A DNA stretch of 64,000 nt from contig VBBS01000027.1 of the NCBI GenBank assembly GCA_005888745.1, positions 55,045-119,044 of the forward strand. Reading direction: 5' to 3'. This document shows positions 1,651 to 11,765 of this stretch, piece after piece; the first letter of the stretch is position 1, and each line of letters begins with the position of its first letter. A model generated the notes under the pieces. The model did not search any database. It was not told where the DNA came from and saw nothing but the letters and a program-made list of their open reading frames with translations. The DNA is from Candidatus Bathyarchaeota archaeon (GTDB taxonomy: Archaea; Thermoproteota; Bathyarchaeia; 40CM-2-53-6). The position numbers were made by a program, and so were the translations under genes.

Positions 1651-2997
1651 CTATTTTACGAAAACGAGCCCTTTCCCGGAGTCTATCTCGAAAGTCTCCG
1701 TGTCAAGCTTTGACGCGGACCCGTTCAGCTTCCGGACCTTCAATTCTCGCCCGTTCGGATCAGAATCGTCCTTGTCCAGATCGATAACGCACGAAGCCGT
1801 ATCCTCCAACCACTTCAACACATCCTTAGGAGCTTTCGAGAGATCCACCGTCAGGACCAGTGTCACACTCGAATCTCGCAGCTTGTCCAGCATCTCGCTC
1901 AATCGCTTGACAAGATCCTTGGGCGCAACCTTCGCAACAACCGGATCGATGGAGTCGAACAGAATCTTGGTCTTCTCGCCGATAAACATGGAACTATTCT
2001 TGACGAGGGCGTCCTGTATCGAATCGAAGTCAAACGCCTTCTCAACATAGTAAGGCTCAAAACTGAACGAGTCGGACTGCGACGAGAACCCGTCCACCAG
2101 TAAGAACCTGTATTGAGACTCGGCCTCCGAAGGATCCGCGCCCATCTTCTTCATCTGCTCCCTGAGCGCCGCCGGCGCCTTATCGTAAGTAACGAACATG
2201 CAAGGGTTTCCATGCTTCAGAAAACTGCTCGCGAGTCCGGAGCACAAAGTCGTTTTCCCAGAGCCTGGACTGCCATTCACAACCACGAGACCGGAAGATT
2301 CGAGGTTTCCTTGGGTAAGCTCGAAGATGTGGTCGAAACTCTGAGAGACCCTTGGAGCGCTGGGACGTTTCTGAGCCTCTTCTCGAGTCGGTTTCTCCGG
2401 CTTGTCGGCAGAGGGTGGGTAGAATTTCGGTTGGACAGTTTCCTTTGTAGGTTGCTCCACAGATTCGGGAGTTTTCATGGAGCGGACTGGAGTCGCTGGC
2501 TGTGGAGGTGCAACACTTGGCTTGTCTGGCTCAGGACCTTTCTTTCCGCCTGGAATGATCGTCATCGGCCTGCTTGTGGGGGTTGCTCTGGGTGGCACCC
2601 ATTCTGGACTGCTCTGCAGCGCGAACCCTCTCGGCTGCTCCCCGCCAAACGAGTTCGCATCGGGTGGCAAATCTTTGAGCAGAGATTGAAGCAGTCTACT
2701 GAGAGAACTATCCTCGTCTGCCTGGGTAGGAGCGGGGGAGCTTCTCGGAGGCTGATAGAAACTGGTGCTCATGGGTTGAGGGCTGGGAGGAGTAGGTGAG
2801 CTTGATGAAATAGGAGGAGCTTGGACCGGAGTCGACGTGACAGGAGGGGTAGGTGCCGACGTTGATACTGATGTGGACGCATCTTCCGTTCCCTGGCCTT
2901 CTTTCTCGTCTTTCTTCTTGCGTCCGAACATGGTGAGTATTCCTATAACAGTGAAAAGGGTCCAGATGGGATCCAGACTTGCAAGTTGGACTAGCAT
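1651..2997 (-). CDS. membrane-anchored KaiC/RecA-superfamily ATPase with a long Pro/Ser/Thr-rich linker
   Basis: N-terminal hydrophobic helix (DPIWTLFTVIGILTMFG), then about 180 aa of P/S/T/Q low complexity. The C-terminal domain has Walker A VVNGSPGSGKTT and a Walker-B-like FLLVDGFSS, resembling single-domain KaiC/FlaH-like ATPases. Confidence 0.6.
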   Translation of the reverse strand: MLVQLASLDPIWTLFTVIGILTMFGRKKKDEKEGQGTEDASTSVSTSAPTPPVTSTPVQAPPISSSSPTPPSPQPMSTSFYQPPRSSPAPTQADEDSSLSRLLQSLLKDLPPDANSFGGEQPRGFALQSSPEWVPPRATPTSRPMTIIPGGKKGPEPDKPSVAPPQPATPVRSMKTPESVEQPTKETVQPKFYPPSADKPEKPTREEAQKRPSAPRVSQSFDHIFELTQGNLESSGLVVVNGSPGSGKTTLCSGLASSFLKHGNPCMFVTYDKAPAALREQMKKMGADPSEAESQYRFLLVDGFSSQSDSFSFEPYYVEKAFDFDSIQDALVKNSSMFIGEKTKILFDSIDPVVAKVAPKDLVKRLSEMLDKLRDSSVTLVLTVDLSKAPKDVLKWLEDTASCVIDLDKDDSDPNGRELKVRKLNGSASKLDTETFEIDSGKGLVFVK

Positions 2998-3178: not shown

Positions 3179-3751
3179 CTATCTCTTTGTCTTCAGAATA
3201 TCCGACTTTGTCAGAATGCCGACAAGGTTCTCACCCTTCGAAACGAGGACGCCGTAGTTGCTCTGCAAAAGTCCTAGAACCAGATCGAGTGGAGTATCGC
3301 TGTTGACCACTGGTAATGGCGAATCCATGATCTCGCGAACCTTGAGGCCCAGGACAGATTCTAAGGACTCACCCCGAGCAGCCCGATCAAGAATCGTTTT
3401 CTCCGAAATGCTTCCGACACATCTTCCGCTTTCGAAAACAGGAAGCTGCGAATAGCCCCTACGTCGCATCAAGTCAACAGCATCCCGTACAAGCTGTGTT
3501 CTGGCCACGGAAACGACGGGACGACTAATGAGCTCATCCACCCGACGCGCGGGGCTCTCGACCCCCGCCCTTTCCAAGGCGCCGAACAGTCTCTGAACGA
3601 TAGAATAAGATGGGTCCACGGAACCGGCTTCTATCTTTGCTATAATCGACTGACTTACTCCAGCGGATACAGCGAGTCTCGACTGTGTTAGTCCCAGCTC
3701 TTTCCTCTTCTTCGGAATCTCCCCCAACGACGGTAGCATGCCCCCGAACAT
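3179..3751 (-). CDS. transcriptional regulator, XRE-type HTH fused to a CBS-domain pair
   Basis: N-terminal RKELGLTQSRLAVSAGVSQSIIAKIE (HTH_3-like), followed by two CBS-like repeats (VVSVARTQLVRDAVDLMRRRGYSQLPV.. and VVNSDTPLDLVLGLL..YGVLV..LVGILTKSDIL). Confidence 0.75.
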   Translation of the reverse strand: MFGGMLPSLGEIPKKRKELGLTQSRLAVSAGVSQSIIAKIEAGSVDPSYSIVQRLFGALERAGVESPARRVDELISRPVVSVARTQLVRDAVDLMRRRGYSQLPVFESGRCVGSISEKTILDRAARGESLESVLGLKVREIMDSPLPVVNSDTPLDLVLGLLQSNYGVLVSKGENLVGILTKSDILKTKR

Positions 3752-3766
3752 GTTGGACCGTGCTCT

Positions 3767-3782
3767 TATTCCTATCGGAATA
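3767..3782. promoter_or_regulatory. operator-like perfect palindrome TATTCC-N4-GGAATA (site 1)
   Basis: TATTCCTATCGGAATA, 16 nt upstream of the regulator ATG (3751, minus strand), in the divergent intergenic region. Confidence 0.5.
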
Positions 3783-3791
3783 CATTAGGGC

Positions 3792-3807
3792 TATTCCTAA
3801 CGGAATA
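3792..3807. promoter_or_regulatory. operator-like perfect palindrome TATTCC-N4-GGAATA (site 2)
   Basis: TATTCCTAACGGAATA, 25 bp from site 1 and just upstream of the TATA-like element of the metE-like operon. Confidence 0.5.
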
Positions 3808-3822
3808 TGAGTACGATAGAAC

Positions 3823-3830
3823 TTATATAA
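3823..3830 (+). promoter_or_regulatory. TATA-box-like element for the metE-like operon
   Basis: TTATATAA ends 28 nt upstream of ATG 3858. This spacing fits an archaeal promoter with a very short or absent leader. Confidence 0.4.
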
Positions 3831-3857
3831 TTAGAATAACGAAACGGCAACGAAAAC

Positions 3858-4841
3858 ATGTCTCCGGAAATCCAGCTTGCGGGAATTCACCCGCGGTCAG
3901 AGAGGCTAATTGAACTCACCCGGTCGTATGAGCGGGCAAAAGCTAGCTGGAGCCAAGTAGAAGTCCAACTTGGGCAGGAGACAAGGGAAGTCATCAAGCT
4001 TCAGGAGAGCCTCGGCTTCAAGCACTTTTCCGACGGTTCCTTAGACTGGCAGGACCAACTTAGACCTGTCACGCGATCTCTGAAAGGAGTGGAGTCTGGA
4101 ACCCGATACTCAAGATGGTTTGACACTAATACATTCTACCAAAAACCCATCATCGTAGGCAAGATTTCCGCCGGCGACATCGACCCCAAGAACTTTCTTC
4201 GAGCCGAACTCTTGACAGAGAAAAGGGGTCGAAAAGTCACTCTCCCCGGACCGTACACATTCTCTCAACTGTCAGAAAACAAGCACTACAAGAATTATGC
4301 TGATTTGCTCTTCGACATTGCAATTGCCGAGCTCGAGATTATTCGGAGGCTCAAGAACGAGGGCGTTACCCTCTTCCAACTATCGGAGCCCTGTTTAGTC
4401 TATCAACCCTACAGGGAGAGCTTCAGGGACCATTCAGAAGTTGAGCAAGCCCTTGGAGCAATCCGTTCCCTAGTAAGAGAGAAGCCAGGAGACTTTCTGG
4501 TCCAGACCTATTTCGGCGACGCTGCCCCCTTACTCCCTGACCTTTTAGATCTGCCGGTCTTCGGTGTTGGAATTGACCTGTTCGAAACTGACGTTTCGTC
4601 GCTCAGCGAACAGGAAAAGACTTCGAAGGCACTCGTGTTGGGAGTTGTCGACTCACGTGAATCCTTCGTTGAAAATCCGAATTGGATCGCTGCCACGGCG
4701 AGGAAATTCTCCGAGAAAGTAGATGCCCGCGACCTGGTTTTTGCTTCCAATTCAGACCTGAAATTTGTGCCTCAAGGGATCGCGAACCAAAAGTTGGAGG
4801 CGCTGTCTAAGGCATCGGAACTGTTCGAGGAGAGCCGATAG
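3858..4841 (+). CDS. cobalamin-independent methionine synthase (MetE) N-terminal-barrel-like protein
   Basis: 327 aa with MetE/UROD-type barrel similarity and no obvious Zn ligands. It lies directly upstream of, and abuts (TAG then ATG), the catalytic MetE-like gene. Confidence 0.6.
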   Translation: MSPEIQLAGIHPRSERLIELTRSYERAKASWSQVEVQLGQETREVIKLQESLGFKHFSDGSLDWQDQLRPVTRSLKGVESGTRYSRWFDTNTFYQKPIIVGKISAGDIDPKNFLRAELLTEKRGRKVTLPGPYTFSQLSENKHYKNYADLLFDIAIAELEIIRRLKNEGVTLFQLSEPCLVYQPYRESFRDHSEVEQALGAIRSLVREKPGDFLVQTYFGDAAPLLPDLLDLPVFGVGIDLFETDVSSLSEQEKTSKALVLGVVDSRESFVENPNWIAATARKFSEKVDARDLVFASNSDLKFVPQGIANQKLEALSKASELFEESR

Positions 4842-6047
4842 ATGCCGAAGCTCTTCCCCGTTCAAGAGATAGGGAGTCTCGCAAAGCCCAAGTGGAGAAC
4901 GAAGGGGTTGCGACAACAACTCTCTTCGCAGGACCTCTCCGAGGCTGAAGAATGGGCTACGAAGCTGGGAATTCAGGACTTCCATGACCGAGCAAAGAGC
5001 ATTTTCAAGACCGGTGACGACAAGATGCGGGTCAAAGCGATTCTTGAACTCTCCACCTTGTATGGGCTGCGCCTCTTCGAAATCGCGGGTGTAGACAACG
5101 AAGGTGTCGGGGGAGAACAGCAACGAGTCGAAATGTACGAGCACGTAATCAAGGCCGTACAGGGAATGAACCTCCTCGGCCACGTCCACTCCTTTGACAA
5201 CAAGTACTTCAACAAGGGAGTTGCAGAGTCGAAGATCTCTAGAAAACATCCTATCTACGTGCCTGAATTTCTTGATGTCAAGAAATACGCCCACCGGGAC
5301 GTGAAGGTGCCGATTACCGGACCGTACACACTAGTAGACTGGTCCTTTAGCGGGTACTACATCCAGAAGCAACACGCCTCCTCTCCCAAGACACGGAGGA
5401 TCGAGGCAAAGCGCGAATTCCTCCTCGATATCGTAGAGCAAGTCATACGACCCGAGATCCGAGACCTAGTTGATGCGGGAGCCTCTTGGATACAGATAGA
5501 TGAGCCGGCGGTGACTACTCATCCAGAACCTCAGGAAATGGAGCTTTTCGTTGAGGCGTGGAATGAAACGGTCAAAGGGTTCAACTGCAAATTCAGTGAC
5601 CACACGTGCTACCCATCCGAGATAGGATACAAAGTGCTCTCGGAATACGCGCCGAAGCTAGACAAGTGCGACCAGCTCGCGTTGGAGTTCGCCAACCGAG
5701 ACACTTCGCGTCTTGGAGTCGACAAGGACTCGCGGGAAGGCTACGGCGACCTCAAACATTTCGTCGATGCTGGTTTCAGCGGAGAATTCGGGCTCGGTGT
5801 CGCCCACGTACACGATTTCACAGGAAACGTGTCCTCCGGTGCAGGAAAATCCGTGGGACGAGACTTTATCGAGTCTCCGGAGCTAGTGCGGGACCGTCTT
5901 CTGTTCGCTACCAGGATTGTAGGGGATCCGGCGAAAATCTGGGCGAACCCAGACTGTGGACTTCGGACCAGAACTTGGGATGTGGCCTTCGCGAAGCTCG
6001 CAAACGTCACGCATGGAGCCGAACTGGCAAGGGAGACATACCAGTGA
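4842..6047 (+). CDS. metE: cobalamin-independent methionine synthase catalytic-domain protein (MetE C-terminal type)
   Basis: Zn-ligand pattern of MetE: DHTCY (H-x-C), LALEFAN (Glu) and NPDCGLRTR (Cys). The N-terminus EIGSLAKPKW is typical of short archaeal MetE homologues. Confidence 0.75.
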   Translation: MPKLFPVQEIGSLAKPKWRTKGLRQQLSSQDLSEAEEWATKLGIQDFHDRAKSIFKTGDDKMRVKAILELSTLYGLRLFEIAGVDNEGVGGEQQRVEMYEHVIKAVQGMNLLGHVHSFDNKYFNKGVAESKISRKHPIYVPEFLDVKKYAHRDVKVPITGPYTLVDWSFSGYYIQKQHASSPKTRRIEAKREFLLDIVEQVIRPEIRDLVDAGASWIQIDEPAVTTHPEPQEMELFVEAWNETVKGFNCKFSDHTCYPSEIGYKVLSEYAPKLDKCDQLALEFANRDTSRLGVDKDSREGYGDLKHFVDAGFSGEFGLGVAHVHDFTGNVSSGAGKSVGRDFIESPELVRDRLLFATRIVGDPAKIWANPDCGLRTRTWDVAFAKLANVTHGAELARETYQ

Positions 6048-6949
6048 GACTAGGTGATCGGGCGAGGCGTCATAACCTCGTTACGGTTGAACTTATTCCG
6101 GACAGAGTGGTTACTAGCGATTTGGCTCTCCTTAGGGGAAGAGTTGACGCTATCACCGTTCCGGCCTTGCGGAATGGCCATAATGACCCAAGTTATCCAA
6201 AGTCTTTCGCGATAACGCCCCAACGCCGAAGTCTTGCTTCCGCATCTATCATCAATAAGGCTGGGATAACCGCTGTTCCCTCGCTAACATGTCGTGATTG
6301 CAGCAGGCTGGACTTGTCAACTGTCTCGAACCAAGTGGAACAAGGGCTTGAGAACGTACTGATAGTCTACGGGGACCCTTATCCAGAGCCTCGTCCCGGG
6401 ACCTATGAGTTCACCAAAACGAACGAGCTAATTCGGGAGGTCTCCTCCCTAAACGACGGAAACGACCCATGCATTGGGGCAGTGACAAACCAACACGCTG
6501 ACAACAGGGAAGGCGAAATCTCCCGAACGATATCACGAGTAGACGCGGGCGCGGACTTTATTGTCACAAACGTCGCCTTCGACTCGGAGAGTGTACTTGA
6601 CCACAGGGATTCCCTACTGGAAGCAGGGTTAGACGTGCCACTCTTCATTCAAGTCTCTATTCCGCTCAACCTAGACAATGTGTTGTTTGTGAGCCAGAAA
6701 TTCGACATACCCGTCCCGGCTCAGGTCAGGAGAAAACTTCTGGAGGATCCGACTGGAGGAAGTCTCGCTGTTGCCGCTGATGCCTACGAGGCCCTACGTG
6801 GAGAAGCGAATGGTATTCACTTCTCATACCTGTTCCGACAACGAAATCCGATTCCCACTTATCGCCATCTGCTGGAGATAATTGGGATAGCAGGCCCGAC
6901 ACTGGCTCCGCTAGCCACGTCTCCTGTGAAAACATATCCCGTTGTCTAG
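6044..6949 (+). CDS. methylenetetrahydrofolate reductase (MetF)-like protein
   Basis: VELIP...LTCRDCSRLDL..ENVLIVYGDPY..GAVTNQH..GADFIVTNVAFDSE follows the MTHFR TIM-barrel pattern. In-frame GTG 6044 overlaps the upstream TGA (GTGA). The long track ORF from 5606 is an overprinted extension. Confidence 0.65.
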   Translation: MRLGDRARRHNLVTVELIPDRVVTSDLALLRGRVDAITVPALRNGHNDPSYPKSFAITPQRRSLASASIINKAGITAVPSLTCRDCSRLDLSTVSNQVEQGLENVLIVYGDPYPEPRPGTYEFTKTNELIREVSSLNDGNDPCIGAVTNQHADNREGEISRTISRVDAGADFIVTNVAFDSESVLDHRDSLLEAGLDVPLFIQVSIPLNLDNVLFVSQKFDIPVPAQVRRKLLEDPTGGSLAVAADAYEALRGEANGIHFSYLFRQRNPIPTYRHLLEIIGIAGPTLAPLATSPVKTYPVV

Positions 6950-6983: not shown

Positions 6984-7580
6984 TTAACTGTCTTGCTTGG
7001 CTGTCTCGACCGGTAGTGGAGCGTCTTCCCCAAGCTGGAGTACTTTCTTCAGTTCTTTTTTCATGAGTGATGGGTCATGGTTGAGATTGAAGTAGTCTGC
7101 GAACGTTGTAGTCGTCCTTAGCATTCTGGTTCTTCCGATCCTCTCGTCATTAATCAGGTCCATGTCCTTCAGCTGTTTCACATGGCCGTAGGCCAGTTTA
7201 CCGCGAACCCGTACCACGTAGGACTGGGTGACAGGCTGCTTCAGAGCTATGAATGATAACGTCCGAAGGGGTCCTGGTGTTAGAAGCGGTCTGTTCGCCA
7301 GTTTTCGAACGTGCTTAGCGAATTCTGCCTTTAGCTGCATGACAAAGCGTCCGTCGGGAAGTTCCACGACTTGAATCGGACTACTGGCGGTTTTGTAACG
7401 TTCAGAAACCGCCGTTGCGATTCCGCGTATCTTGTCCTCTGATCTAGCGCCTACGACAGACCCGATCATCTTCAGGTCTAGTGGTCTTCCGGATACGTAC
7501 AGTGCAGCCTCGCAGAGCTGCTGCTGTAGGTCAGCAGTTTTCTGCTGAGCTGTGTTAGTCGAAACTTGTGTTTCCGTCGT
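6984..7580 (-). CDS. scpB: segregation and condensation protein B (ScpB)
   Basis: Winged-helix ScpB pattern. The family N-terminal motif (EAALYVSGRPLDL) is encoded upstream of the first ATG (7469). The only start-like codons in the open 38-codon extension are ACG 7580 and ACG 7577. The start is uncertain. Confidence 0.75.
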   Translation of the reverse strand, partial: TTETQVSTNTAQQKTADLQQQLCEAALYVSGRPLDLKMIGSVVGARSEDKIRGIATAVSERYKTASSPIQVVELPDGRFVMQLKAEFAKHVRKLANRPLLTPGPLRTLSFIALKQPVTQSYVVRVRGKLAYGHVKQLKDMDLINDERIGRTRMLRTTTTFADYFNLNHDPSLMKKELKKVLQLGEDAPLPVETAKQDS

Positions 7581-8232
7581 CTCTCAGCTCGATTTCGATA
7601 TCACCGAACTCTAAAGGCTGGGCGAGGCCCACTCTTCCTTCTACTGCCAAGAATAGCAGCATGATGAACATTCTGACCGCTTCGAGAGGGTCTCCCTTTC
7701 CAAGGAGGGTTAGGAAGGACAATTTTGTTCGCGCGGATCCAGCTTTTGCTACTAGTCTCTGGAGAAACGCTTTGATATTCTCTTCAATCTTGACGAGGAA
7801 ATCGTCGACTTGTTCAAACACCTCGGGCGTCCTGAGAACCATCTGTGCGTTTGCCGGGAGCATTCTCTCCGCCGTCAACACCTCCAGTAATCCTTTGATG
7901 ACTTCCTCAACAGATGTGGTTGTCGACTCGTAGCGTAAGGGAAAGGATAGGGGAGGGGGAACGAAGTCTGTCGGCCTCTCGAGGGGGGGCTTCGGCGGTT
8001 CCTCCATCTTGAGGATTAGTTCTGATTTCATGCGCAGAAGGATTGCTGAAGAGAGAAGGGCTGTCCCAGAAACGGAGAAGTCGATGAACCCTCGACCCCT
8101 CATCTCATGAAGAAGCTCCTCCAGTATGTTTGCGAGGTTTACGTCCCACGGTTTGACGCGGTGAAGATGGATGAGGTCGAAGAGAACGGCATATGGTGCC
8201 TTCAGCCAGTACGCCTCTTCGTGAAGCGTCAA
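7555..8232 (-). CDS. scpA: segregation and condensation protein A (ScpA, kleisin)
   Basis: LFDLIHLHRVKPWDVNLANILEELL and the C-terminal winged helix are typical of ScpA. The start overlaps the smc stop by 4 nt. Confidence 0.8.
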   Translation of the reverse strand: MTLHEEAYWLKAPYAVLFDLIHLHRVKPWDVNLANILEELLHEMRGRGFIDFSVSGTALLSSAILLRMKSELILKMEEPPKPPLERPTDFVPPPLSFPLRYESTTTSVEEVIKGLLEVLTAERMLPANAQMVLRTPEVFEQVDDFLVKIEENIKAFLQRLVAKAGSARTKLSFLTLLGKGDPLEAVRMFIMLLFLAVEGRVGLAQPLEFGDIEIELRDDGNTSFD

Positions 8233-11200
8233 TTGTTCTCCTCCCTCGAGGGCAGGGACACGATCTGACTGCTGCCCTTGTCGATGAAGACTCCGAACAC
8301 CCTCTCCGCCCTCGATATTGTCGTATCCTTGAGCGAGATTACTATGAACTGGGACATGATACTCCTCGTCCGAAGGAGGGTCGCTAGGCGTTTTGCGTTT
8401 AACACATCCAAGTGTGCGTCAATCTCGTCCATTACGTAGAATGGCATGGGATGGATTTGTTGGAGTGCTAGAAGGTAGCAGACCGTTGAGACAGACTTCT
8501 CTCCTCCACTCGCGCTCCCAATCGTAAGCTCTGTTTTTCCGGGGAACTGAAGCAGGACGTCGAGTCCGCCTTCAAACGGGTTTTCAGGATTGTCCAGGAC
8601 CATTCTTCCGTTTCCCTCACCAGTCATCTCGCGAAAAATGCTCTGGAATGTCTCGTTGACCTTGTGGTATGCGCTCATGAACGTGTCAAGCTTCTTCCTC
8701 TCGAGCTCGTTCATGAAGTCGAGGATAGCCAGCTTCTCTCTTTCGAGTTCTCCGATCCTAACTGAGAGATGTTTGTATCCTTCTTTCTGTGATTCGTATT
8801 GTTGGGCAGCGAGCTGGTTGATAGCACCTATCTCGTCCCGTTCCTGTTCGAGGACGCGTTTCATATCTTCAGCCTCCTTGATGAGATCCGGGTGAGTCTC
8901 GAGCGGCGTCTCGAATCCAAGGCCTCTAAGTTGTCCTTTGAAGATTGTTAGTTGAGCGTCGACTTCCCTTAGGCCCGCCTTTAGATCGGTCACGCTTGCA
9001 TTGAGTGGATCCATCATTTGCAGAAGTTTCCGAGTTGCTTTTTCGACTTCCACAAACTGTTCTTCGTACTTCTTCCTCTCATCCCCAACGCTGTCCAAAT
9101 TTCGGACCAGCCGCTGCTTTTCCTCGTTGAACTTTTTCATCTCTTTCTCCAATGTTTCGAGTCGTTCGTGCGCTTCTTTGGCTCGGGCCTCTTCGCGATG
9201 AATCTCAGAGTCAAGCGAGCGCAGTTGTATTCGGATCTGGTCGATTCCCGGCCTCAGGGTCTCGAGAGTAGACTGTTGGGAGGAGAGACGTGTTTCTAGC
9301 TCGAGCTTCTCTCGGAGAATGAGTTGGTTCTCGGTGGTGGCTTGGTCTCGCTCCGTTTCGAGTTGAGAGAGCGCTGACCTTCTGGAATCAATCCTCAGCC
9401 TCGTTCTTTCCTCTTCTATGACCGCGAGCCGCCTCTTCATCTCCGCTTGTTTCTCCGCGGTCTCCTTCAACAAGACTTGTTCTTTCGCCATGGAGTTCTG
9501 GAGGCTGTCAATTCGCCGGGTCGTCTGTTGCAAGAATGTTCTTGTTCTCTCGAAACTCTTCTTGGCAAGTTCTACGTCCCTTGCCAAGGCCTCTCGGGTC
9601 TTGCTCGCGGATACTCGGTCTTCCAACAGCTCGTTTAGCTCAATCTCGATACGGTCAACGTCGGACCGTGAGCGTTGCACAACGGTCTCCAGCGATTTCA
9701 CTGTTTTCTCGAGGCTTTCAAGTGCAGTGGATCGGGGAACTAGGTTTGAGATCTCGAGCGGGGCTCTATAGTAGCCGCTCTCGAGGCCTCCTCCTGGCTC
9801 GTAAAGGTCTCCGCTGGTTACGACGCATCTTTGTCCCTTGGATGCTGTCAGGAACGCTGCTCTTTGCGTCGTGGCGAGTACAGTATCGCCGAAGACGAAT
9901 TTGACAGCGGGGGCAACTGACTTGTCGGACCGTATTACCTTCGAAAGCGGACCAATTATTCCGGAGACGTTGCCAGCGTCGGGCTCCAGATCCGAGAGTT
10001 CAAGATCTTCTATCGGAACGATCTTGACGCGTCCAAGCTTAGTACGTTTCAGGCTTTCGACGCACCGGATTGCTACCTCGAGGTTTTTCACAACTAGGGC
10101 TTTCATCCAGCCGGCGCTGGCTGCCTGTATTGCCTTACGGTATTCTTCGGGAAACTTGACGAGATCTTCTAGACGGCCGTAGACGCCTTTCAGAGCGCCT
10201 TCATCAGCCATCTCTTCGATCTTCTCGATAGCTTTGTCTTCTGCTCCCATGCTGTCCGCTAGGATCATTTGTGTGTTGAATTCCACCACGGTGACTCTTG
10301 CCTTCTTTGCGACGTCGAGGGCTTCGTCGATCTCTTTTCTGCGCTGGTCCTTGAGTTCACTGTATTCTTTTGTTTTCTGCTCGATTGATTCGAGCCGTTT
10401 TTCCTCTTCCTTCTGAAGTTTCTCCATTTCGCGGATTCTATTCTTCAGCTCTTCTGAGAGCTGGGCGAACTCTTTCTGGCGGGCTTCGAGGGTTTGCAGA
10501 TGGCTGGCGGTTAGGTCGAGTTTTGTCGAACTGCCCTTGCTTTGAGCGGTTAGGTTTGAAAGTTCCTTTCCCAGGCCGTCGATCTCGTCCTGGACTTCAC
10601 GCAGTTTCTTGGCGTCGAGGTTGAGAGACGATCGGGTGTCGGTAAGCTTTTGGCCGATTTTTTCGACCTTGAATGTGGAATCCTCTAGCTTGTCCTCTAG
10701 GATTTTCTTGTGTGAATGGAGACTTTTGATCGAGCTGGCAAGTGGTTTGACTGAGGTTTCCATCTCTTCCGCCTGTTTTGTGAAGGCTTCGCGCTGTCTT
10801 GCGCGGGTTGTGACCAGGTTCTTCGTTGTTTCCGCGGCGGATTTTGCTTCGACGATGCCCTTGCTGGCTTCTGCGATAAGTCTTTCGAGATCGAAGAGTT
10901 CTTGGTTTCCCTGGGTGACTATTTTCTCTTCGAAGCTTCGTCGGTCTTGTTCGATCTTTGCTCGCTGTTGAGTTAGGTCTTCTCTTTCGTGTCTCACCTG
11001 AGAGAGCTTGACCTGTTCCTGCTCGAGGGTCTGTGACATTTCCTGATGCCGGTTTTCGAGTGCAAGGATCTGGGCGGAGAGGATGCGCGCTTGCTGGCTG
11101 TTTATCTCGGTCTTGAGAAGATTGAACCTGAGAAGGTCGTTTCTTTCTCGTTCCAGCTGTTCTATTCTCTGTCTCACCTCATCAACTCTCGCAGCGGCGA

Positions 11201-11765
11201 CTTTGAGGTTCAGATCGGCCTCTTGTAATTGCACTCTTGCCTCGGCCTTCTTTGTCTCGAAGGTTCCGATTCCGATTAGGCTTTCAAGAATCCTTCTTCG
11301 TTCTTCTGTACTGATCTCCGCGAGGCGAGTGATGGCGTGTTGTGAAATAAGGTTGAAGCCGGTGACTTGGATGTCGGCTGAGCTCATTATGTCCTGGACT
11401 TGTTTTCTGGAGAGGCGTCGTCCGTTAAGGCGGTAGATTCCTTCTCCGCCTTTCGAGAACTCTCTGGATATAGTTACGAGGTCAGAATCTACGGGCAGCT
11501 TTCGGTCACTGTTGTCGAACTGCACTGCCACGTAAGCGGATCGTGCTCCTTCGCCCTGTGACTTGTGGACTAGGTCGGATAGGCTTCTGCCTCGGAGTTC
11601 TCTGGGGCTTAGCTCACCGAGCGCGAACTTGAGACTGTCCAGGATATTGGACTTGCCCGATCCGTTGGGTCCGGTTATGACTGTGAATCCTGTTCCGAGG
11701 TTGATGGAGACCTTCTTGTTGAAGGTCTTGAATCCTCGGATGTCGATTCTCTTGATGAACACCAA
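8229..11765 (-). CDS. smc: chromosome segregation ATPase SMC
   Basis: Walker A GPNGSGKSN, two long heptad coiled-coil arms, a hinge, signature SGGEKS and Walker B FYVMDEIDAHLD. TTG 11765 or GTG 11762 could be the start. Confidence 0.95.
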   Translation of the reverse strand: MVFIKRIDIRGFKTFNKKVSINLGTGFTVITGPNGSGKSNILDSLKFALGELSPRELRGRSLSDLVHKSQGEGARSAYVAVQFDNSDRKLPVDSDLVTISREFSKGGEGIYRLNGRRLSRKQVQDIMSSADIQVTGFNLISQHAITRLAEISTEERRRILESLIGIGTFETKKAEARVQLQEADLNLKVAAARVDEVRQRIEQLERERNDLLRFNLLKTEINSQQARILSAQILALENRHQEMSQTLEQEQVKLSQVRHEREDLTQQRAKIEQDRRSFEEKIVTQGNQELFDLERLIAEASKGIVEAKSAAETTKNLVTTRARQREAFTKQAEEMETSVKPLASSIKSLHSHKKILEDKLEDSTFKVEKIGQKLTDTRSSLNLDAKKLREVQDEIDGLGKELSNLTAQSKGSSTKLDLTASHLQTLEARQKEFAQLSEELKNRIREMEKLQKEEEKRLESIEQKTKEYSELKDQRRKEIDEALDVAKKARVTVVEFNTQMILADSMGAEDKAIEKIEEMADEGALKGVYGRLEDLVKFPEEYRKAIQAASAGWMKALVVKNLEVAIRCVESLKRTKLGRVKIVPIEDLELSDLEPDAGNVSGIIGPLSKVIRSDKSVAPAVKFVFGDTVLATTQRAAFLTASKGQRCVVTSGDLYEPGGGLESGYYRAPLEISNLVPRSTALESLEKTVKSLETVVQRSRSDVDRIEIELNELLEDRVSASKTREALARDVELAKKSFERTRTFLQQTTRRIDSLQNSMAKEQVLLKETAEKQAEMKRRLAVIEEERTRLRIDSRRSALSQLETERDQATTENQLILREKLELETRLSSQQSTLETLRPGIDQIRIQLRSLDSEIHREEARAKEAHERLETLEKEMKKFNEEKQRLVRNLDSVGDERKKYEEQFVEVEKATRKLLQMMDPLNASVTDLKAGLREVDAQLTIFKGQLRGLGFETPLETHPDLIKEAEDMKRVLEQERDEIGAINQLAAQQYESQKEGYKHLSVRIGELEREKLAILDFMNELERKKLDTFMSAYHKVNETFQSIFREMTGEGNGRMVLDNPENPFEGGLDVLLQFPGKTELTIGSASGGEKSVSTVCYLLALQQIHPMPFYVMDEIDAHLDVLNAKRLATLLRTRSIMSQFIVISLKDTTISRAERVFGVFIDKGSSQIVSLPSREENN

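Follow-up and report, generated by a model that had tools for sequence, protein, structure and literature searches.

Conserved twin palindromes as probable operators of an archaeal HTH-CBS protein family linked to methionine and SAM-cycle genes

Does an archaeal transcription factor with a CBS pair as its sensor control both methionine synthesis and its own gene? The question is raised by a 64-kb stretch of a soil Bathyarchaeia genome (hereafter the window), in which a regulator gene on the minus strand is divergent from MetE-N-like, MetE-C-like and MTHFR-like genes on the plus strand, with two palindromes lying between them. The original prediction for this locus was of a simple circuit, in which a SAM- or adenosyl-sensing repressor binds the palindromes and thereby controls the methionine synthase operon and itself. 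To our knowledge, the regulation of methionine and SAM metabolism in archaea is essentially uncharted; archaea are without MetJ and MetR and, as far as is known, without SAM riboswitches. The proteins and contigs nearest to the regulator of the window are likewise from soil Bathyarchaeia, and the genes at its divergent promoters are as follows.

3179..3739, minus strand: HTH_3 and CBS-pair regulator, 186 aa (ATG at 3739; open reading frame extendable to 3751)
3858..4841, plus strand: MetE N-terminal-domain-like protein of 327 aa, encoded at the head of the target operon (Pfam Meth_synt_1, E=6e-22)
4842..6047, plus strand: MetE catalytic-domain-like protein, 401 aa (Pfam Meth_synt_2, E=9e-21)
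6044..6949, plus strand: MTHFR-like protein (Pfam MTHFR, E=1e-16), with synteny retained in Bathyarchaeia relatives

That a methionine synthase operon stands beside the HTH-CBS gene was confirmed by Pfam and NCBIfam, which give MetE-N-like, MetE-C-like and MTHFR-like products. The catalytic-domain-like protein matches the NCBIfam methionine synthase model PRK01207 at E=8e-69 with a score under the cut-off of the model, and the NCBIfam methionine synthase models that match the N-domain-like protein all do so below their cut-offs. Methionine synthase is split over two adjacent genes at 3858-6047, with the MTHFR-like gene next to them; as these matches all score under the cut-offs, its substrate may be either methyl-folate or a methyl-corrinoid. 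The three plus-strand genes are tightly packed, the GTG start of the MTHFR-like gene (6044) overlapping the stop codon of the MetE-C-like gene. Two other features adjoin this cluster. Directly downstream of the regulator and on the same strand is a KaiC/RecA-like ATPase gene (1651-2997, minus strand), whose product has a Pfam KaiC match at residues 221-446 and an N-terminal region of ~200 residues that is Pro/Ser/Thr-rich and of low complexity; the pairing of regulator and KaiC-like gene is retained in nearly all Bathyarchaeia loci. On the other side, a complete chromosome-condensation set of ScpB, ScpA and a 1178-aa SMC (6984-11765, minus strand) adjoins the methionine operon on the opposite strand.

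The regulator itself was revised slightly. Its start was taken as the ATG at 3739 because most homologues begin at MLPSL, which corresponds to residue 5 of the open reading frame in the window, and on this sequence comparison 3739 is the most likely start. Consequently, the divergent region of 106 bp described originally holds when measured from the end of the open reading frame at 3751, and measures 118 bp from the likelier ATG; similarly, the protein has the HTH-CBS architecture that had been proposed for it, at a length of 186 rather than 190 aa. Pfam places HTH_3 (PF01381) at residues 14-59 (E=3e-10, 40.4 bits versus a cut-off of 23) and CBS (PF00571) in two stretches (E=8e-23, 81 bits versus a cut-off of 24), which together form a CBS pair. 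An AF2 model of the protein (mean pLDDT 88) has an N-terminal domain of four to five short helices (residues 7-60) and a CBS pair. Foldseek comparison of this model with the PDB returned CBS pairs only, many of them at probability 1.0, with an rmsd of 2-3 A over about 124 residues, the nearest structural matches of the CBS pair being AMP/ADP-binding AcuB and uncharacterised CBS proteins. The structural neighbours include modules that bind AMP/ADP, Ap4A and SAM alike, and fold matches do not discriminate among these ligands. The solved structures found by sequence search and Foldseek were isolated CBS pairs or HTH domains, none of which spans both domains. An NCBIfam scan of the regulator gave no family name, every match being far under its cut-off, and no CcpN-named model was among the matches.

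The elements that were recognized between the two divergent genes are listed below in order along the plus strand.

3763..3770, minus strand: probable TATA-like element of the regulator gene, AATAAGAG, judged from sequence and overlapping the regulator-proximal arm of O1
3767..3782, unstranded: putative operator O1 (site 1), TATTCCTATCGGAATA, with perfect 6+4+6 symmetry
3792..3807, unstranded: putative operator O2 (site 2), TATTCCTAACGGAATA, read directly from the window
3811..3814, plus strand: GTAC (GTAY) between O2 and the TATA box, invariant or nearly so in a 22-sequence alignment
3823..3830, plus strand: TATA box of the metE-like operon, TTATATAA, with CTTATATAA invariant in 22 sequences
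3833..3838, plus strand: third element O3, half-site AGAATA (consensus RGAATW), 2 nt past the TATA box

Direct reading of the window verified the twin perfect palindromes at 3767-3782 and 3792-3807, whose starts are 25 bp apart. Allowing one mismatch, TATTCC-N4-GGAATA occurs in the 64 kb at O1 and O2 only, against a chance expectation of 0.06 matches derived from 100 dinucleotide-preserving shuffles of the window, none of which (0/100) reached two or more matches. Weaker copies of the motif in the window are not in excess of chance, with 22 observed at three mismatches versus a background of 19.

Conservation of the sites was assessed in relatives obtained by a scan of one genome per species, which yielded 32 loci, 23 of them from Bathyarchaeia. 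The region upstream of the regulator is retained in 21 of these 23, the other two being cut there by a contig end, and all 21 have both the divergent arrangement of regulator, MetE-N, MetE-C and MTHFR genes and the two palindromes. At the 12 specified motif positions, O1 has no mismatch in any of the 21 relatives, and O2 has 0-2 mismatches. An alignment of 22 Bathyarchaeia intergenic regions, whose regulators are 62-97% identical, delimited the conserved blocks as O1 (ATTCC..GGAATA), the metE-proximal arm of O2, GTAC, CTTATATAA and a GAATA 3 bp past the TATA box; between these blocks and toward both start codons the sequence varies. In the proximal arm of O2, GGAATA, the last five bases (GAATA) are invariant and the first G is present in at least 90% of the 22 sequences. 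The entire stretch from O2 to the downstream GAATA, TATA box included, is without indels in the 22 sequences. The O1-O2 distance is either 25-28 bp or 34-36 bp, two classes that differ by about one helical turn.

A further palindrome, CATTCCCTTCGGAAGA, was noted in one subclade of Bathyarchaeia, where it lies ~1 kb downstream of the regulator start and just upstream of the KaiC-like gene (L012 5020, L013 4373, L014 5025, L015 5042, L021 1013). It is weak, with two mismatches, and absent from the window, and was judged to be unrelated rather than an additional operator.

On the regulator side, the claim that site 1 sits over the upstream region of the regulator gene is borne out, O1 overlapping the TATA-like element of that gene. 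The centre of this element is ~27 nt upstream of the ATG at 3739, a position that fits a leaderless transcript. Read toward the regulator, O1 merges into an A/T-rich element in all lineages (GGAATAAGAG in the window), and clearer TATA boxes are found at the same arm elsewhere, such as GGAATTAATAC in Thermoplasmata and AGAATTTAAAG in other Bathyarchaeia/Nitrososphaerota in which the regulator is linked to L-ASST. The gap from the end of O1 to the regulator ATG is 26-34 nt in the 21 relatives. These positions fit the A/T-rich element being the TATA box of a leaderless or near-leaderless regulator mRNA. As O1 overlaps this element, a protein bound there would be expected to exclude TBP, which suggests autorepression.

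The metE side of the region is arranged differently from what had been described. Site 2 does not abut the TATA box; rather, 15 bp (3808-3822) lie between them. Any repression would act more plausibly via the half-site that flanks the TATA box downstream. From the centre of the TATA box to the ATG at 3858 is 31 nt, a distance that by archaeal promoter geometry fits a near-leaderless mRNA for the metE-like operon. The GAATA core of O3 is invariant across the 22 aligned sequences. Together, the TATA box and AGAATA span 16 bp (3823-3838), the centre of which is 31 bp, or about three helical turns, from that of O2, and the TATA half reads TATTAA in some lineages as compared with TATTCC in the consensus arm. 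Hence 3823-3838 looks like a degenerate, cryptic third operator in which the TATA box would form the distal half. The window contains five TATA-like 8-mers under a strict pattern, and RGAATW, whose frequency per position in the window is 0.002, follows only that of the metE operon. GTAC sits 3 bp past O2, outside both the palindrome and the TATA box, and may prolong O2, belong to a BRE-distal element or be recognized by another factor.

This layout extends beyond the metE promoter. The order of palindrome, 14-16 bp, TATA box, 2-4 bp and RGAATW was found in 11 of 14 representative promoters, the half-site being missing in the other three (L028, L030 and L043), and the tripartite layout precedes four classes of target, namely metE, L-ASST, a pair of genes for a 95-aa protein and a PALP enzyme, and a ThrC-like gene. 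Where a lineage has a single palindrome, that one site overlaps the regulator TATA box and also stands 14-15 bp from the TATA box of the target. In Thermoplasmata, O1 and O2 are 121-129 bp apart, yet the distance from O2 to the target TATA box is unchanged. The Asgard loci have a single palindrome 13-24 bp upstream of the TATA box of the SAM synthetase gene and are without the downstream half-site.

The breadth of the regulator family was determined by sequence searches. A word-indexed search with the regulator returned 1288 matches, and a profile search of 1.84 billion representatives returned 635 clusters (50% identity) at E<=1e-30; among the 150 clusters listed, nearly all are 170-200 aa and align end to end. 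By its collinear full-length likeness and identical domain order, the protein in the window is a member of an archaeal HTH_3-CBS family of about 175-195 aa, which we take to have the architecture of the COG3620-type 'predicted transcriptional regulator'. Altiarchaeales and Woesearchaeota are among the sources of named members, and every member found comes from an uncultivated archaeon; among the 20 clusters whose hosts were examined there were only metagenome-assembled genomes and no cultured host.

Distant homologues, with 30-50% identity, have this palindrome or a related one across their own promoter. Those of Thermoplasmata (Sysuiplasma-like) and Aenigmarchaeota, which are 39-44% identical, have palindromes resembling TATTCC-N4-GGAAT(A/T) immediately before the regulator gene, and those of Thorarchaeota, Lokiarchaeota, Hodarchaeota and other Asgard-type lineages have ATTAC-N5-GTAAT instead. 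The difference is matched in the protein, the recognition helix GVSQS[ILFT]IAK pairing with TATTCC-N4-GGAATA and GVSQ[SA][YF]IAR with ATTAC-N5-GTAAT. In 35 non-Asgard loci, sites with at most one mismatch number 50 in the 6.9 kb upstream of regulators versus one in the other 265 kb. The motif is enriched ~1300-fold upstream of the regulator gene in these loci, and 30 of the 35 have such a site within 200 bp upstream of it. The sequence thus behaves as expected of the site of an autoregulated factor, being an inverted repeat at the promoter of the regulator that tracks its gene across lineages. The lone outside match is at position 6436 of L006 and has no counterpart in the window.

The genes divergent from the regulator differ among lineages as follows.

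Bathyarchaeia of the clade of the window: MetE-N-like, MetE-C-like and MTHFR-like genes
Asgard-type archaea (seven loci; 6/6 lineages examined): archaeal SAM synthetase gene
Aenigmarchaeota: MTHFR-like gene
Thermoplasmata: ThrC-family gene, then ThiS-family gene
Four other Bathyarchaeia/Nitrososphaerota lineages: HcyBio(COG1900)+CBS gene with NIL-ferredoxin gene
One further Bathyarchaeia-like lineage (L044): genes for a 95-aa protein and a PALP enzyme

HcyBio(COG1900)+CBS with NIL-ferredoxin is L-ASST, the archaeal homocysteine synthase (PMC12068725). MetM is reported to be often misannotated as threonine synthase (bioRxiv 10.1101/2024.10.14.618325), and the ThrC-family and ThiS-family pair of Thermoplasmata fits the MetM/MetO thiocarboxylate route to homocysteine. 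Several other features of these neighborhoods were recorded. One homologue, in L045, has no divergent methionine gene or partner; its region at 3904-4000 keeps the palindrome TATTCCAAAAAGAATA, with an AGAATC that begins 33 bp from GGAATA on the other side, and the arrangement resembles the remnant of a divergent promoter since lost. The same-strand genes upstream of that homologue are for aspartate kinase and enzymes of the DAP pathway, and aspartate kinase genes are found near the L-ASST/regulator cluster in three loci (L041 1-1237, L046 30-1256, L045 1-590), which suggests a wider aspartate-family neighborhood around the regulator in Bathyarchaeia/Nitrososphaerota. In the Asgard loci (L031, L033, L034, L036, L038, L039 and L040) a protein of ~218 aa with a weak CA109-like Pfam match is encoded downstream of the regulator, in four of the seven loci (L031, L033, L034 and L036) the SAM synthetase gene adjoins that of a 186-aa protein without a Pfam match, and a Na+/H+ exchanger gene is often nearby.

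The palindromes are very probably DNA-binding sites of the neighboring HTH-CBS protein, as judged from sequence and its conservation. We further consider it likely that they are operators of a widespread, uncharacterised family of archaeal HTH_3-CBS proteins dedicated to genes of methionine synthesis and the SAM cycle, since the sites are conserved, are essentially confined to the region upstream of the regulator and co-vary with its recognition helix, and the regulator is repeatedly paired with methionine/SAM genes that are not homologous to each other. By the same evidence the originally proposed circuit of self-control and control of the methionine operon gains support for its link between regulator, operator and methionine genes; its sign and its signal are graded separately below. 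Linked to such genes in at least five archaeal lineages, the family is a strong candidate for the missing archaeal regulator of methionine and SAM metabolism.

In the mechanism we propose, a dimer would bind each 16-bp palindrome via its two XRE-type HTH domains. Occupancy of O1 would exclude TBP from the regulator promoter, giving negative autoregulation, while O2, at a fixed distance of 15 bp upstream of the metE-MTHFR TATA box, would serve as an anchor of high affinity. The weak third site, composed of the TATA box and AGAATA, would be filled cooperatively from O2, such that TBP, TFB and RNA polymerase are blocked and the operon is repressed. Repression of metE via a TATA-overlapping third site anchored by O2 is the mode of control that we favor. 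The signal read by the CBS pair would be an adenosyl metabolite from the methyl cycle.

CBS pairs bind adenosyl ligands. Potentially, SAM would be the most economical signal, as it is the common downstream product of all target modules, the direct product of SAM synthetase, the target in Asgard archaea, and the known ligand of the CBS pair of L-ASST/MJ0100. The CBS pair of that archaeal homocysteine enzyme (L-ASST, MJ0100) has SAM and MTA as ligands (Lucas et al. 2010, cited in PMC12068725). Comparison of the CBS pair of the regulator with that of L-ASST gave no significant or specific sequence similarity; as this likeness is absent and the nearest structures are AcuB and uncharacterised CBS proteins, homology gives no pointer to SAM. 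We consider SAM acting as co-repressor, with MetJ-like logic, the most likely signal, with SAH acting as inducer, as in SahR, as the main alternative.

The same protein and sites could also work with the opposite sign and signal, the regulator occupying O2 (around -52 relative to the predicted start) and activating the metE operon via recruitment of TBP/TFB and repressing its own gene at O1. The signal would then be demand for methyl-cycle flux, such as build-up of SAH or MTA, or loss of SAM, and in a dual variant activation at low occupancy may give way to repression once O3 fills. Several observations speak for such activation: in 13 of the 14 representative promoters O2 stands at a constant 14-16 bp upstream of the TATA box, the sole palindrome of the Asgard loci is upstream of the BRE/TATA of the SAM synthetase gene, and archaeal regulators positioned upstream of BRE/TATA usually activate, as do Ptr2, TFB-RF1 and TrmBL1/Tgr (PMC4158304). 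The target set of metE, MTHFR and SAM synthetase is also that of the SAH-induced SAM-cycle regulon of bacterial SahR (PMC4239095). However, a pure activator hardly explains the conserved RGAATW between the TATA box and the start site. In addition, biosynthetic operons are usually under end-product repression, and XRE-type HTH proteins are mostly repressors. We regard activation as unlikely, although a serious competitor to the repression that we favor.

It is far less probable that a different transcription factor binds the palindromes, or that they serve only to autoregulate the HTH-CBS gene with the methionine genes being controlled independently. Autoregulation would need O1 alone, and a conserved neighborhood is no proof of co-regulation; however, the motif accompanies the regulator gene from phylum to phylum while the targets differ, and shifts with the recognition helix, and the fixed spacing from O2 to the target TATA box, maintained even with O1 and O2 121-129 bp apart in Thermoplasmata, would be unexpected if only the regulator were controlled. 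Least credible of all is that the palindromes are RNA hairpins (a leader, a riboswitch-like element or a terminator) or derive from chance or repeats. The 106-nt region does fold better than its shuffles (z = -3.7), owing to two hairpins, but O1 and O2 are outside both predicted transcripts, being upstream of the metE TATA box and over that of the regulator, and the fold score merely reflects these palindromes. Moreover, their arms are invariant, with no compensatory change, while the 4-nt spacers vary; no Rfam family, SAM and SAH riboswitches included, matched 3500-4100 on either strand at E<=1; and the chance expectation of the palindromes is just 0.06. The reading as an RNA element was accordingly rejected.

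How far the operator interpretation can be generalized is evenly balanced in our estimation. HTH_3-CBS proteins may be general sensor-regulators of the archaeal methyl cycle and thereby the functional equivalent of MetJ, SahR and SAM riboswitches. Across Bathyarchaeia, Nitrososphaerota, Thermoplasmata, Aenigmarchaeota and Asgard archaea, they would detect SAM or SAH via the CBS pair and act through an unusual, TATA-containing tripartite operator on at least five non-homologous modules (SAM synthetase, split MetE with MTHFR, L-ASST, MetM/MetO-like and the MTHFR-like gene). The predicted circuit is of an ordinary type, a ligand-sensing, autoregulated, operator-binding protein; what is new is the uncharacterised family, a pathway unaddressed in archaea and the distinctive operator layout. 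The supposition that such a circuit is uncharacterised appears correct: a full-text literature search, which covered few subscription journals, found no description of it and no paper on an archaeal HTH-CBS regulator or methionine/SAM regulon. The family offers a concrete candidate for study, with a small protein of 186 aa, defined 16-bp operators, a short list of ligands and conserved promoter geometry, and it reaches the Asgard archaea, where the partner gene is that of SAM synthetase itself. If the proposal is true, this would be the first characterised archaeal transcription factor with a CBS pair as sensor, and the regulator could provide a simple SAM- or SAH-responsive switch for archaeal genetics. 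The third site, if real, would represent a compact means of building the TATA box into an operator.

Among known systems, the proposed logic most resembles that of MetJ with SAM or of SahR with SAH. For MetJ of Escherichia coli and other gammaproteobacteria, SAM is co-repressor in the control of methionine synthesis, MTHFR, SAM synthetase and its own gene, and several neighboring operator repeats are occupied cooperatively. Targets in the methionine pathway, control of the regulator gene and cooperative use of adjacent operators would be shared features. However, MetJ is a ribbon-helix-helix protein that binds 8-bp met-boxes, whereas the archaeal protein has an XRE-type HTH and a CBS pair, its sites are 16-bp palindromes and its promoters are of the archaeal TATA/BRE type; Pfam matches it to HTH_3-type and CBS domains only and it has no homology to MetJ. 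In architecture it is like CcpN of Bacillus subtilis, the best-known HTH-plus-CBS transcription factor, in which a DNA-binding domain is joined to two CBS domains; CcpN is a bacterial repressor of gluconeogenic genes modulated by adenine nucleotides. SahR is a member of the ArsR family with a methyltransferase-like effector domain, and its repression is relieved by SAH, whereas the sensor of the archaeal protein is a CBS pair. PMC4239095 names SahR among the three transcription factors known for methionine metabolism in Proteobacteria, with a regulon centred on metE/metH, metF, metK and ahcY. That regulon closely matches the genes adjoining the HTH_3-CBS family. The HTH_3-CBS regulator belongs to neither the MetJ, the SahR nor the RbkR family, and its likeness to CcpN is one of architecture.

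With regard to archaeal regulators, we know of no operator of TrmB, TrmBL1 or Tgr with the TATA box as its second half. These autoregulatory proteins belong to other families and respond to sugars, and for them the position of the site relative to BRE/TATA decides between activation and repression (PMC4158304). RbkR, an archaeal regulator of riboflavin genes in the role of bacterial riboswitches, was predicted from gene neighborhood and conserved palindromes (PMC5397151). The route of discovery was therefore alike, although RbkR has another fold (a riboflavin kinase fusion), pathway and ligand. Lastly, by analogy, the CBS pair would resemble those of L-ASST (MJ0100/MA1821) and human cystathionine beta-synthase, which sense SAM (and MTA) in sulfur amino-acid metabolism (PMC12068725). 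The CBS pairs of those two control an enzyme allosterically rather than transcription, and in some lineages L-ASST genes are themselves the divergent neighbors of the regulator family.
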